From a plasmid, in sequence record OW967251.1: a stretch of 64,000 nucleotides of DNA; one strand, given 5' to 3'. Positions 1,714 through 10,700 of the stretch are shown piece after piece. Position numbers: made by a program. The first letter of the stretch is position 1, and every line of letters begins with the position of its first letter.

Positions 1714-4700
1714 TAAGAAATTAATGTCGGATACGGCGCGAGCGCCTTATCCGACCAACTTATCAGGACGGAATGGGCTTTGTTGAATAAATCGAACTTT
1801 TGCTGAGTTGAAGGATCAGATCACGTATCTTCCCGACAACGCAGACCGTTCCGTGGCAAAGCAAAAGTTCAAAATCACCAACTGGCCCACCTACAATAAA
1901 GCCCTCATCAACCGTGGCTCCATAACTTTCTGGCTGGATGATGAAGCTATTCAGGCCTGGTATGAGTCAGCAACACCTTCTTCACGAGGCAGACCTCAGC
2001 GCTATTCTGACCTTGCCATCACGACTGTGCTGGTCATTAAACGCGTATTCAGGCTGACCCTGCGCGCTGCGCAGGGCTTTATTGATTCCATTTTTTCTCT
2101 GATGAACGTTCCGCTACGCTGCCCGGATTACAGCTGTGTCAGCAGGCGGGCAAAGTCGGTTAATGTCAGTTTCAAAACGCCCACCCGGGGTGAAATCGCA
2201 CACCTGGTAATTGATTCCACCGGGATGAAGGTCTTCGGTGAAGGCGAGTGGAAAGTCAAAAAGCATGGCCAGGAACGCCGCCGTATCTGGCGTAAGCTGC
2301 ATCTCGCCGTTGACAGTAAAACACATGAAATCATCTGCGCTGACCTGTCGCTGAACAACGTTACGGACTCAGAGGCCTTCCCCGGGTCTTATCCGGCAGA
2401 CTCACAGAAAAATCAGGGCAGCATCGGCAGACGGCGCTTACGACACCCGGCTCTGTCACGATGAACTGCGGCGTAAGAAAATCAGCGCGCTTATCCCACC
2501 CCGAAAAGGTGCGGGTTACTGGCCCGGTGAATATGCAGACCGTAACCGTGCAGTGGCTAATCAGCGAATGACCGGGAGTAATGCGCGGTGGAAATGGACA
2601 ACAGATTACAACCGTCGCTCGATAGCGGAAACGGCGATGTACCGGGTAAAACAGCTGTTCGGGGGTTCACTGACGCTGCGTGACTACGATGGTCAGGTTG
2701 CGGAGGCTATGGCCCTGGTACGAGCGCTGAACAAAATGACGAAAGCAAGTATGCCTGAAAGCGTGCGTATTGCCTGAAAACACAACCCGCTACGGGGGAG
2801 ACTTACCCGAAATCTGATTTATTCAACAAAGCCGTCTGTCGTTTCCACTAGTCCTCCTATGGCATATAACAGTGCGTTATACCGGTCCCGCAAGGTCGGC
2901 TTCCTTGCAAGCCAGATTACCTTGTAAGGTCAGAAAGTCCAATGACAGCTTTATGTACGAAGCAGTCATTGAGCTACTACGTATAAATGACCGCTCCTGG
3001 CCTACAGCAGACAAGCTTAGGATGCTGAAGGTCTGCTGAGAGCGATAAACGGAAATTCGAGACGGTATAGTCTCTAAAAGCTTCCCTGCCATAAAGTTGC
3101 CGAGATTCTCAGCGAATAGGTAAGTATCATCATACAGTGGTCAGATGTGCATCCGCAGTACATTTGCTCGCATGTTAACGTAGCAGTAGTACAACATCAT
3201 TTAGAGACGAATCGCCTAACAGGTTTTAACACCTTAAAATTTCACTGCTGGTTAAACACATTATTAAATGATTTTTATCATTTAAATCATTGGGTTAATT
3301 TTAATTGTGATTTGCTTTTAACCCTCGCAATTTAGAAGTATTATTTTGAGATTAATCCACTTGCCCTGCCTTCATCACTGCTTGTAAATATGCGTGAAGA
3401 ATGATTTTAAGGTTATATATCATGGAGTTATTGAATTTTTTGGCGGCGATTTTTGTCATTTACTTGTTGTTTTTTAGAAAGAAAAAACGTAAATCTCCAA
3501 AGTCTTATGCTTCAGACCCCGTGAAAGCACCGCCAAAAGAATGGCTCGCTGACATCAAGAAAAAAGAGGCGGTTGTGCGAAACGATGATAGTGAAGACGA
3601 TAACCTTGCAACTTTTACATTGAGCGGTGGCCGGGGTGTTGAACTTCGGGTGACAACCAATCATTACCGCAACACCTCAAAGTCAGCAGGTGCACTAGCT
3701 CGATGGGTACTTCCGGGTGAGATGATAACTGTAGCTGGTGTAGCAATTAGCGGTGGCCACATTTACGTGGGGCAACGTATGAAGCCCTCCGGTCAGGAAT
3801 CAGGCGGCTATTATGACGATGGAAGTGAGGCATCATTAATTGATGACACATGTAAGATAAAACCTACTTCTTATCTTTACGAGGACAGTTCATTAGGATA
3901 CTGGCCCAGTTTTTCCTCTCTTTCCCCAGAAGCACGCGGTGCGTATGTCAGTTGGCTTGCCAGCGATAGGTCTGATCCATCGTGTCCTATCGGCTATGTT
4001 TTTATCTACCTCTACGGCCTGGAAAGAAAAGCGCTCGTAGATTCCACTGACCCAAAATTCCCTGATGCTGAGTTCCGTAATCTGTTCAATGAAGTCGCTC
4101 GGTTAAGATCGATATTCATTGAGAACCGCTCCTTCCGTGGATATTCGACCCAATTACTCGAAGCCATGTCTATTCTGCGCCCGAACATGGGCTTAGCCAC
4201 TGAGCTCGATAGCAATTCAGGTTTCAGCAACAGCATGCAATTTAAGCTGGCTCTTGCAAAAACTGTACATGAAGGAGTTCCTGTATCAGCTGAACTGGCG
4301 TTGAACTGGGTAATAAACCACACCGAGTATTCGCTGCGTACCCCGGCTCGCCGCTGTGCTAAAGAGTTTGCTGCACTTTTCAAACGGCGTTACACCCTCA
4401 AATATGGTGAAGGGATGGTCGTTAAGGCGAATAAAACGCGCCTGAGGTTAGATTACACACCAGCAAGTCCTAGTTTGCGAGGTGTTCGACTTCCTGTTCC
4501 CGACCTGCCTGATCCAAGTGCGTTGAAGAGCCCTGTCCAGAAAATTATGGCTCTTGCCGATATATGTACAGATGAACTTGATGCTTATAGTCGCTACCTT
4601 GGTAGGAAAGGTACGTCAGTCAATGATACGGCTGCAATTATGCTGCTCCCTTCAGAGATAGTTAATGAAAGCGCAGAAAAAATATTAAGCTCATTCAAAC

Positions 4701-7700: not shown

Positions 7701-10700
7701 AGATAGTAATAGCATGGCCACTCTTCAGGTACAGGTCAAAGGGTACCTGGAGCGAGTGATCCAAAATGAGGAAGAACTTCAGAGTTCAGCTGAACATGAC
7801 GTTTGCGCTGACATTTTTAGACTTTGCCGTGGCGATTCTCATTTGGTCTTTGCAAACAGCCGAAAACGCACTGAAAGCATTGCGGCAACGCTGAGCGACA
7901 TGTGTGAGGAACAAATTGTTCCGAATGAATTTTTCCCCCACCATGGTTCCCTTGCCAAGGAATTACGTGAGGTGCTTGAATCTCGTCTTCAGAAAGGAAA
8001 TTTGCCCACAACAGCTGTTTGTACAATGACGCTTGAGTTGGGAATTGATATCGGTAAGGTTAAATCGGTTATCCAAGTTACGCCTCCGCATTCTGTTTCC
8101 AGTTTGCGCCAGCGAATGGGGCGTTCTGGGCGACGCGATTCCCCGTCAGTACTCAGAATGCTAATTACAGAAAATGAGCTTACTGTGAGTAGCAGTATCG
8201 TTGATCACCTACGACTCCAGTTGGTGCAGTCGATGGCAATGATCAGGTTGATGATCTCTAAACAATGGTTTGAGCCTGCCGATTCCCGGCAGATGCATTA
8301 CTCCACGCTGCTACACCAGATTCTTGCAATTACCGCACAATGGGGTGGAGTTCGTGCCGACCAGCTCTGGTCACAACTATGCCAGACAGGGCCGTTCAGA
8401 AATGTAGATTTAAACGATTTCAAAAGCCTGCTTAAACATATGGGAGCATGTGGCCTACTCACTCAACTTGCTAGCGGCGAAATGGTTGTTGGGGCAGAGG
8501 GGGAGAAACTGACTAACCATTACACTTTTTATGCCGTGTTCAATACACCAGAAGAGTTCCGCATTATCACCGGAAACAGAACCCTTGGAACAGTGCCTGT
8601 GGACTCCCCACTGCTACCAGACCAACACATCATCTTCGGTGGGCGGCGCTGGAAAGTGACAGAGATCGAGACAGAGAAAAAAGTTATCTATGTAGAGGCA
8701 ACCAAAGGCGGTCAGCCACCACAATTTAGTGGGGGAGGTATGTCTGTTCATGATGCCGTTCGTCAGGAAATGCTCGCTATCTATAGGGAAGGTGATTACC
8801 GCATAGCAATAGGTAGCAAGAAAGTAGATTATGCCGATACTGCCGCCAGAAACCTATTTGCGGAAGGCTGTAGTAACTTTCAGCGTTTTAAACTTCAAAA
8901 TGAGTGTTTTATTACGAGTGGACAACACTGTTACGTAATACCCTGGATGGGGGATAAAGTTGTCAATACGATTACAGCCTTGCTCATACGTTGTGGTTTT
9001 AAAGCAAATTCATTTGCTGGCGTTATAGAAATCGATAACTCCAGTGTAGCTTCCGTTCAGCACGCGCTGAAAGAAATGCTGTTGTCAGGCTTGCCATCTG
9101 CATTTGATCTTGCCACAGATGTTCCAGAAAAGTACTTAGATAAATATGACGAGTATTTACCAGAGTCCCTTCTTGCGAAAGGGTATGGTGCAAAGGCGTA
9201 TGAAACAGAAGGTACGCGCATCTGGTTGCAGAAACATCTTTAGTAATCTGGATATGTAATCAGGGTATAAATAAGACATATATACCCTGAATTTTTTATT
9301 TCCCTGTAGATTTACTAGGCTTTAGTCCCGGGGTATTACCAGGAGTATCTTTATTATCACGTCGACGTTGATCCGGTTTTCCTGTCGATTTAGCAATTGG
9401 TTTTGGACCAGGTTTAAGACCCATGATAGTTATCCTTTAGAGGTGTAAGAGGGAAGCCTCAACAATGATATATTGGATAATGTGAAATTTTTCAATGGGA
9501 GCGATCAACATATCCAATGATTAACTCGATATTGTGAACAGTGTCCGCTTCTGGCACAAAGCAGACGTTAAGACTTACAGCATCGGGAAACTTCTGGATG
9601 CCGCGTCAGCGGCATGGAGGCGCCAGATGAGGTTACATGTGTCTGTGGAGTCAAATGGCGCCGAAAGCCCGGCGTAGCCGGTTACCTGGCTATAAACTCT
9701 GCCACCCTACCCCCTGCCCTGATTAGCCTTAACCATCTAACAGCAATGAAGAAGTCAAAGTAATCCCTTTTAACCCCGGTGAGCGGGCTTTACGGCGTTT
9801 ACGACGTAAAGGGCGTGATTTCCGGGGCCTTAGCGGCGGCAGCTTGCTGCTGACGCTTAGGGGGATGTTCATCAACTATTTCAGCGACACCAGGGAACTT
9901 AACACGGTAGCTGCAAAGCCATACCCGCTTAAAACAGCTCAGACGCCTCTGTACGCGGTCGGAGTGGTCCCGACAAGGCGACAGCCGCAGTCGGGGCGTA
10001 TCTCCGCGTTAGCGGGCCGCAGGGCCGCTTACGAGCGTGTACTAAACAACTGACCACAGCACCACCCACAGCGATGAAGAAGAATAGTTACAACACCCAT
10101 CATTAAAAGCGACACTACTCCCGGCCTTCGGCCGGGGGCGGCGGCGCTTTTCAGTGGTGGGGAGGGGCTCCCGGCTGGCAAACCGGCGCCGGTTTTATGA
10201 CGGATTTCCTTTTGAATGCTGTAACTAATGTGGTTCTCCGGTCGGGGCCCGTCGCGCAGCGATGGGAGCTCTCTCTGATGTTGCCGAACCGGCGCGACCG
10301 TCAGGTCGCTGCAAGGGCGGGCACTCTCCGCAGCCTGTCCACAGGGCAGGCGATGAACAGGTTATGTGTTTACAGGATTTATTAAAGGATCTTTAAAAGA
10401 GATACAGAGCTGGTGTTTAAAAGGAACCACGCGCCCTGAAAGTCCGACGGCATGTGCTTTGTACGTATCACGGTTGTAGCCTAATGAAATACTCCCTTGC
10501 AGTTATATGTGGATAACAGAAATCGGCCGTCAGAAGTGACGCCGGCGATAACATTTAAGGCCACGTTGACGCAAGGAAGACCGGAATTATGGTGAGGAAA
10601 GCAGGCCTGAAGATAAGATAATACGTAGTAGCCGGCCAACAGGCGTGCGAAAGCCTCCGGCGCCGGCCGGATTTTTTAAGGAAGGAATGTTATAGGGGGA

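Follow-up and report, generated by a model that had tools for sequence, protein, structure and literature searches.

Genetic organization of the sngABC cassette

A stretch of 64,000 nucleotides (nt) of the plasmid sequence record OW967251.1, hereafter termed the window, was analysed with regard to a three-gene cassette located between an IS903-family element and the plasmid replicon; all coordinates refer to this window. The region 3422-9243 almost certainly represents an intact sngA-sngB-sngC gene set of the Shango anti-phage system, which is part of a mobile block of about 6.2 kb (3305-9560) fixed beside the IncFII(K) replicon of a very common family of conjugative Klebsiella IncFIB/IncFII plasmids. 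The listing of open reading frames (ORFs) yielded three plus-strand ORFs at 3401-5731 (776 amino acids, aa), 5735-7051 (438 aa) and 7048-9243 (731 aa), exactly the gene sizes given in the original prediction, which had been deduced from the DNA sequence without database searches. The following features were assigned to the cassette:

3422-5731, plus strand: sngA, membrane-anchored TerB_N/TerB/TerB_C protein of 769 aa (776 aa from the ATG at 3401)
5735-7051, plus strand: sngB, ATPase of the BrxC/BrxD family (ORC/Cdc6-type AAA+), 438 aa
7048-9243, plus strand: sngC, superfamily 2 (SF2) DExH helicase of the BrxHI/Lhr type, 731 aa
3305-3421, plus strand: conserved upstream leader, presumed promoter and ribosome-binding site of sngA
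9260-9297, plus strand: hairpin and T-run, probable intrinsic terminator of sngABC
3305-9560, plus strand: conserved mobile block comprising the leader, sngABC, the hairpin and a tail of about 270-320 bp

The start codon of sngA at 3422 is likelier than that at 3401, since it is used by RefSeq and since the validated SngA protein of Escherichia coli KTE113 begins at the equivalent residue. The genes had been described as coupled by 4-nt overlaps throughout; such an overlap (ATGA) is present between sngB and sngC, whereas the stop codon of sngA and the ATG of sngB are separated by a spacer of 3 nt. The overlap-type junction of sngB and sngC was kept in all 76 relative loci compared and the spacer-type junction of sngA and sngB in 40 of 48.

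Homology of the leader to diverged loci begins at position 3305 according to blastn, and the 41-nt stretch 3305-3345 aligns with the native upstream sequence that was cloned together with the validated Shango system of KTE113. A promoter scan called no convincing sigma-70 site inside the leader (3305-3421); the only candidate that it proposed (3253-3281) is not part of the block, and promoter sites were no more numerous than expected by chance. Downstream of sngC, an A/T-rich hairpin with a 10-bp stem (9260-9269 / 9281-9290) is followed by TTTTTT, and the stem columns are invariant across three diverged loci. The 71-nt terminator fold has a free energy of -15.1 kcal/mol (z = -1.65), with 13 of 200 shuffled sequences folding equally well, and the centroid structure contains the 10-bp stem; the consensus terminator scan, whose counts were not above chance, did not call the hairpin at 9260-9290. 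The probable terminator, which had been termed strong, is conserved, but its stability is modest. Likewise, the G+C content of the cassette (47.8%; 47.1% for the block 3305-9560) is indeed lower than that of the tra region (52.3%) and of the ori/repA region (56.3%), although the difference is only moderate and not as pronounced as had been stated.

Assignment of the cassette to the Shango anti-phage system

The Shango-specific models of PADLOC matched all three deduced proteins, with E-values of 8.8e-105 for SngA, 3.4e-186 for SngB and 4.6e-282 for SngC, each far above the next family. The matches of SngB (1-438 of 439) and SngC extend over the full length, and that of SngA aligns residues 41-775 with positions 12-524 of the 528-position profile. 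The profile searches that had been proposed as a check of the first two proteins detected TerB_N, TerB and TerB_C in SngA and BrxC_BrxD, the former DUF2791, in SngB. All of the sequence motifs quoted in support of the initial assignment (GEYGSGKT, LDEM, GKT, DEFH, SAT and QRMGRSGRR) were found in the deduced proteins. A search with one genome per species provided 80 related loci from 80 species, including metagenome-assembled genomes (MAGs) of Bacteroidota, Chlorobi, Nitrospirota and Firmicutes, and the gene order sngA-sngB-sngC was kept in all 80 of them. The proposal of a Shango system next to an IncFII replicon was hence borne out by the PADLOC and Pfam matches, by the similarity to SngA and SngB of KTE113 and by the confinement of relatives to accessory or mobile contexts. 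A search of PHROGs with the cassette proteins returned generic helicase and TerB matches only. This gene triad was reportedly first predicted by Anantharaman, Iyer and Aravind in their 2012 paper on Ter systems. The anti-phage activity of Shango has been shown in E. coli (Millman et al. 2022) and in Pseudomonas aeruginosa PA14 (Johnson et al.).

Three other assignments were considered and rejected. Membership in a type 2 BREX (Pgl) system is contradicted by the score of the BrxD model NF033438 (145.5 bits versus a cut-off of 350) and by the absence of PglX, PglZ, BrxC/PglY and PglW nearby, the neighbours of the cassette being lacY, IS903, repA and a gene for a nuclease of the phospholipase D (PLD) type. 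A tellurite ter operon was dismissed, as TerB occurs only as a domain inside SngA and no other ter genes were present among the ORFs of positions 1-13000. With respect to the Lhr and ligase-associated DExH helicases, SngC reached 231 bits with TIGR04121 (cut-off 850) and 196 bits with PRK13767 (cut-off 849), these matches being confined to residues 11-465 and 4-384, respectively; SngC is a relative of this helicase family and not a member.

Conserved features of the SngA and SngB proteins

The SngA protein matched the Pfam families TerB_N (1.6e-46, 159 bits), TerB (2e-07, 31.7 bits) and TerB_C (5.5e-26, 92 bits), all above the gathering scores. Its N-terminus consists of the hydrophobic helix LLNFLAAIFVIYLLFF followed by the basic stretch RKKKRK, which confirms the transmembrane (TM) helix and polybasic anchor that had been noticed before. 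Both elements were kept in 71 of 78 homologues, and the exceptions that were inspected turned out to be truncated or annotated with a wrong start. Since the positive-inside rule can be applied to the single N-terminal TM helix with its adjoining basic stretch, the bulk of SngA is expected to be cytoplasmic. Within the TerB domain, the acidic residues D527, E534, D599, E606 and E611 occur in 77-78 of the 78 SngA sequences and D531 in 72, with E539 being variable (38 of 78). Apart from the single TM helix, the searches gave no indication in SngA of a domain for pore formation or lipid degradation, nor of a nuclease fold. A sequence search of the PDB returned no match for SngA or SngB.

The SngB protein was assigned to BrxC_BrxD (PF10923) with an E-value of 2.4e-150 and 501.5 bits, and it also matched the BrxD model of PADLOC (1.4e-43). 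The Walker A motif GEYGSGKT at residue 61 (with K67) and the Walker B motif SLDEM at residue 240 (with D242 and E243) are both intact. SngB is 76-100% identical to the window protein in all 80 loci.

Relationship of SngC to BrxHI and Lhr helicases

The helicase motifs of SngC are located at residues 51 (GKTEA), 155 (DEFH), 193 (SAT) and 355 (QRMGRSGRR), and motifs I, II, III and VI are invariant in 77 aligned sequences. With the PADLOC models, SngC scored 936 bits as compared to 383 bits for BrxHI, which nevertheless matched over the full length (5.4e-115). Pfam detected only DEAD and Helicase_C besides a weak match to the Lhr winged-helix domain, and no nuclease domain was found by Pfam in SngC of the window. 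The nearest PDB entries are the Lhr structures 5v9x and 7lhl at 3e-30, the best matches ranging from 3e-30 to 5e-28 and including MrfA/YprA (6znp). In a published phylogeny (PMC12278908), SngC shares a single SF2 clade, confined to defence proteins, with BrxHI, DruE and DpdJ. The AlphaFold2 model of SngC, calculated from an alignment of 17 relatives that are at least 85% identical, had a mean predicted local distance difference test score (pLDDT) of 44.8 and was not used.

In contrast to these relationships, SngC had been regarded as a DUF1998-like helicase with a C-terminal cysteine cluster. This classification did not hold: SngC gave no match to PF09369 (DUF1998) at E <= 0.01 and is most closely related to BrxHI and Lhr. 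Four cysteines (Cys608, Cys620, Cys628 and Cys649) do exist in the C-terminal part, but they do not form CxxC pairs, and their conservation across the 77 sequences amounts to only 21-55%, with replacements by A/L/V, P/Y/H, V/S/T and S/R/H, respectively. The missing PF09369 match, the end of the MrfA match at residue 387 and the unconserved cysteines together rule out that SngC belongs to the DUF1998-type helicases, such as MrfA/YprA and DrmA of DISARM.

Nuclease fusions of SngC and unequal conservation of the operon

A profile-free search of 1.84 billion representatives resulted in 1759 SngC relatives at E <= 1e-30. Nearly all of the top 150 match over close to the full length, with 36-56% identity, and 18 of these diverse relatives (about 12%) exceed 900 aa. 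All 16 long proteins that were checked (among representatives P0246-P0341) contain a C-terminal nuclease, namely RNase_T in 12 cases, DUF2779 in two, and PDDEXK_1 and MBL/RMMBL in one case each. Two of the nuclease-fused SngC proteins were looked up in their genomic context, and both are encoded in operons that combine TerB_N/TerB/TerB_C and BrxC_BrxD proteins with the helicase-nuclease. These Shango-type operons are located on metagenome contigs:

L087, 6001-9225: Shango-type operon with SngC fused to RNase_T
L088, 6001-11505: Shango-type operon with SngC fused to a PD-(D/E)XK nuclease

The attachment of four different nuclease types to SngC in independent events argues that the output of the family is the processing of nucleic acids and points to DNA processing. 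A literature search did not find such SngC-nuclease fusions described for Shango-type operons.

Moreover, the three proteins differ considerably in their conservation. In the 42 most distant loci (L045-L086), which belong to MAGs and isolates of Bacteroidota, Chlorobi, Nitrospirota, Desulfuromonas and Lachnospiraceae, the mean identity to the window proteins is 46% for SngA, 79% for SngB and 65% for SngC; SngB is still 76-81% identical, whereas SngA reaches only 42-50%. This combination of high SngB and low SngA identity across phyla suggests wide horizontal transfer together with a very unequal constraint within one operon. As SngA evolves fastest, it is presumably the phage-facing part of the system, and SngB would represent the constrained core.

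Distribution and mobility of the cassette

The cassette DNA was detected in 647 plasmids of PLSDB, 487 of them with an identity of at least 99%, mostly from Klebsiella and mostly conjugative IncFIB/IncFII plasmids; 142 Salmonella plasmids carry it at about 84% identity. In total, 533 of the 647 carriers are predicted to be conjugative. The identical plasmid pMR0617aac shows an unbroken alignment of 99.6% identity over 2862-10699 with the same arrangement of Shango and repA. Copies of about 83% identity were present at varying positions in 504 of 5426 complete E. coli genomes and are chromosomal in 495 of 507 places. A blastn comparison of the region 2700-10700 aligned the copy in a tRNA-Phe island with an integrase gene in E. 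coli (L002) over 3305-9562 at 82.8% identity, and the copy on a Salmonella IncFIB plasmid (L003), which is flanked by insertion sequence (IS) elements and toxin-antitoxin genes, over 3305-9509 at 83.8%. The segment common to all contexts accordingly extends from 3305 to about 9509-9562. A distribution typical of a housekeeping operon in non-mobile surroundings, which would have spoken against a defence island, was not seen among the relatives, as they occurred only in accessory or mobile contexts.

The recent acquisition of the cassette that had been proposed from its base composition and the adjacent IS element can be retained in part: the lower G+C content and the IS are in agreement with a horizontal origin, but recency is unsupported. 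The junction between the cassette and the replicon is shared with other plasmids of the family, and the acquisition therefore predates the window plasmid.

The cassette is split by an IS in 6 of the 25 best-matching PLSDB records, and that of record H53 is truncated. Among the records H1-H6, H40, H44 and H53, the cassette is interrupted by ISVsa5, IS26, ISKpn26 or IS1B, or it is truncated. These split or truncated copies in several carriers indicate that Shango has been repeatedly inactivated on this plasmid backbone.

A phage-borne Shango system was considered with respect to a single match in the phage collection, OK490421.1 (Klebsiella phage Kp4866-6), and was rejected, as this match starts inside sngB/sngC. 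Positions 1-2316 of the record correspond to the sngB/sngC part at 92.7% identity, and the 42-aa ORF described below is found 5.6 kb further at 7899-8024. In all likelihood, the boundaries of a predicted prophage were set wrongly here, so that the record took in part of a defence island.

A small conserved ORF at the 3' border of the block

The tail of the mobile block contains a further ORF that is convergent with sngC:

9296-9424, minus strand: ORF of 42 aa, basic and rich in Pro, Gly and Lys (MGLKPGPKPIAKSTGKPDQRRRDNKDTPGNTPGLKPSKSTGK)

Copies of this ORF were found in L002 (approximately 14891-15019), L003, L004, L006 and L089-L098, and it is annotated as hypothetical in every source. Four diverged copies differ by 10-14 nucleotide substitutions with only 0, 0, 0 and 2 amino acid changes, a pattern indicating that the ORF is under strong purifying selection. 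It is located beside Shango in 17 of the 80 loci and is absent from all 57 loci with a SngA identity of about 70% or less as well as from some closer ones. Its distribution in E. coli is wider than that of Shango (870 versus 504 of the 5426 genomes), it was present in 26,776 indexed blocks altogether, and depending on the locus its other neighbours encode PifA, AbiH, a PDC-S73 STAND protein or a Mokosh-like helicase. The absence from diverged loci, the wider spread and the other cargos rule out that the ORF is a fourth Shango gene. Since it also borders other defence cargos, the ORF may mark a junction at which defence cassettes are exchanged within a hotspot of defence genes.

Genetic neighbourhood on the plasmid

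The regions flanking the mobile block contain the following features:

463-1716: intact lacY, preceded by the end of lacZ
1776-2833: IS903-family element, full length (1058 bp)
10690-11547: repA, annotated as IncFII RepA in identical plasmids
12433-12993, minus strand: phospholipase-D-family protein of 186 aa beside repA, with a signal-peptide-like N-terminus
13533-15887, minus strand: S-type pyocin/colicin-like bacteriocin of 784 aa with a C-terminal DNase (Pyocin_S 4e-33, Col-Pyo_DNase 5e-47)

An IS903-family element does adjoin the cassette, yet it is not the scar that had been described but a full-length element with two perfect 18-bp inverted repeats and a frameshifted transposase gene. 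It lacks a target-site duplication, which suggests that the element did not simply insert here but took part in an IS-mediated rearrangement. Between this element and the Shango block lies a low-GC segment of about 470 bp (2834-3304) that is absent from the E. coli and Salmonella copies; its sole ORF (2877-3092, minus strand, 71 aa) has no Pfam match.

On the other side of the replicon, the product of 12433-12993 matched DrmC of PADLOC only as a generic PLD protein (6e-15) and is named phospholipase D family protein in identical plasmids. The gene at 13533-15887 belongs, as deduced from its domains, to a killing module that resembles klebicins and adjoins the replicon; on the same plasmid type (L090), the bacteriocin gene is followed by an immunity gene of the Colicin_Pyocin family (85 aa).

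Proposed mechanism and alternative explanations

A tentative model of Shango action can be derived from the features of the three proteins, in which a membrane-bound SngA acts as scaffold or sensor and SngB brings SngC onto phage DNA close to the membrane or activates it there. The single N-terminal helix would tether SngA to the cytoplasmic side of the inner membrane, and SngA would exert its scaffold or sensor function through the TerB_N, the metal-binding TerB, the winged-helix-like and the TerB_C modules. Upon infection, SngA may engage the SngB-SngC pair, whereupon SngB, itself an ORC/Cdc6-type AAA+ ATPase, would load or switch on SngC, and this Lhr/BrxHI-type SF2 translocase could then unwind or strip phage DNA or replication intermediates in the vicinity of the membrane. 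Because SngC of the window lacks a nuclease, either the helicase activity by itself or nucleases of the host would have to bring about the interference. A modest (10-100-fold) but broad protection would be expected, in line with the values obtained in E. coli and P. aeruginosa. The conservation of the TM anchor, of the acidic TerB residues and of the SngC motifs, along with the homology of SngB-SngC to BrxD-BrxHI, the fast evolution of SngA and the nucleases fused to SngC in relatives, supports this model. Taken as a whole, the explanation that joins the Shango identity to this mechanism is regarded as very probable, the mechanism for its own part as possible.

Several points weigh against this reading. 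Protection has been demonstrated only for the systems of KTE113 and PA14, which are other alleles than the window copy, and a review of February 2026 lists the mechanism of Shango as unsolved. The published idea of a membrane surveillance fits SngA as an effector as well as a sensor. The structural model of SngA is of low confidence over residues 19-171, where a further function may reside, and the role of SngB as a loader is suggested by analogy only.

If SngA is the effector, the system would act by abortive infection, with the SngB-SngC pair sensing phage DNA or damaged DNA and SngA damaging the membrane or arresting the cell. The membrane anchor of SngA, the grouping of Shango with membrane-acting systems in reviews, the lack of a nuclease in the window copy and the pairing of a TerB protein with a pore-forming toxin in the related TerB system Dionysus are in agreement with this explanation, as is the sensor function of the HamB helicase in Hachiman (PMC12278908). 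It appears rather unlikely, however, in view of the single TM helix of SngA and the failure to detect a pore-forming or lipid-degrading domain, and since the relatives add nucleases to the helicase and not toxins to SngA. A less likely explanation is that phage defence is the side effect of a competition between plasmids, in which a membrane-tethered 3'-5' helicase complex intercepts incoming foreign DNA, including the single strands of rival plasmids during conjugation. The position of the cassette beside the replicon of a conjugative plasmid, the large share of predicted conjugative carriers and the suitability of a membrane location for sites of DNA entry would be compatible with such a role. 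Lhr-type helicases translocate on single-stranded DNA, and anti-plasmid systems such as ApsAB occur in the same E. coli islands. The relatives in E. coli are nevertheless mostly chromosomal, the split or truncated cassettes of several carriers argue that the system is dispensable to the plasmid, and no anti-plasmid activity of Shango was found in the searched literature, so that this role is considered improbable. Much the same holds for a broader version, in which SngABC acts on whatever DNA crosses the inner membrane and forms a barrier to rival plasmids. In that case, the 42-aa protein would either cooperate with Shango or mark the site of cassette exchange in a defence hotspot of Enterobacterales.

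A function outside defence, either as a TerB module for tellurite or metal stress or as an Lhr-like DNA-repair operon serving the plasmid or the host, is likewise less likely than abortive infection and hardly credible. RefSeq does name some SngA homologues "tellurite resistance TerB family protein", and Lhr and MrfA, the nearest solved relatives of SngC, are repair helicases; but the family protects against phages in two species, neither ter genes nor a ligase partner are located nearby, the NCBIfam repair equivalogs remain far under their cut-offs, as noted above for TIGR04121, and a housekeeping role is not consistent with so scattered an occurrence on islands and plasmids. The membrane-bound sensor or scaffold with a loaded helicase is the preferred, tentative model for Shango.

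Significance

The identification is correct, but both the system and its location were known before. Plasmid carriage had been singled out as worth noting, but a preprint of 2026 already reports Shango on this Klebsiella IncFII/IncFIB plasmid type, and the identification therefore leaves the state of knowledge unchanged. A widely spread family of multidrug-resistance plasmids nonetheless carries an anti-phage system that looks functional, and acquisition of such a plasmid may alter the susceptibility to therapeutic Klebsiella phages. Additionally, the SngC-nuclease fusions, the gradient of sequence identity from SngB over SngC to SngA and the conserved membrane anchor of SngA provide leads on the mechanism of Shango.

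Comparison with known systems

Bunzi (BnzA) and Dionysus (DinB) resemble Shango in combining a TerB domain with membrane association, and a membrane surveillance has been proposed for them. Neither of the two contains a BrxD-like ATPase or an SF2 helicase, and the partners in Dionysus are a pore-forming toxin and a MAEBL protein. The repair helicases Lhr (5v9x, 7lhl) and MrfA/YprA (6znp) provided the best matches of solved structures to the SngC core, but SngC possesses neither the DUF1998 zinc module of the MrfA type nor the long C-terminal extension of Lhr.

The BrxD-BrxHI dyad of type 2 BREX is homologous to SngB and SngC, and the BREX pair is also tightly linked. BrxD belongs to the ORC/Cdc6 class of AAA+ ATPases and has been proposed to load or activate BrxHI (PMC12839542). 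Unlike in BREX, the partner in Shango is a TerB membrane protein, so that an epigenetic marking of self and non-self is not part of the system.

The Shango system of P. aeruginosa PA14 (PA14_RS11735-45; Johnson et al. 2022/2023) consists, by its published description, of the same triad of a TerB-like protein, an ATPase and a DEAD/DEAH helicase and reduced the efficiency of plating 10-100-fold for several phage families. It is located in the chromosomal core defence hotspot cDHS1, whereas the window system resides on a plasmid.

The closest counterpart with verified activity is Shango of E. coli KTE113 (SG206; Millman et al. 2022), which comprises the same three genes in the same order. The SngA proteins are 76% identical and the SngB proteins 97% identical over the first 399 aa, the portion contained in the supplement of Millman et al., and the total lengths are equal (769 aa for SngA and 438 aa for SngB). 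Both SngA proteins have the N-terminal TM helix and a KKKK motif in common, and part of the upstream leader is shared as well. For comparison, the chromosomal E. coli relative in the tRNA-Phe island is 81% (SngA), 97% (SngB) and 88% (SngC) identical to the window proteins. The window copy accordingly represents another allele than that of KTE113, with SngA as the most diverged protein, and it is carried by a Klebsiella IncFII/IncFIB plasmid, whereas the KTE113 copy is located on the E. coli chromosome.

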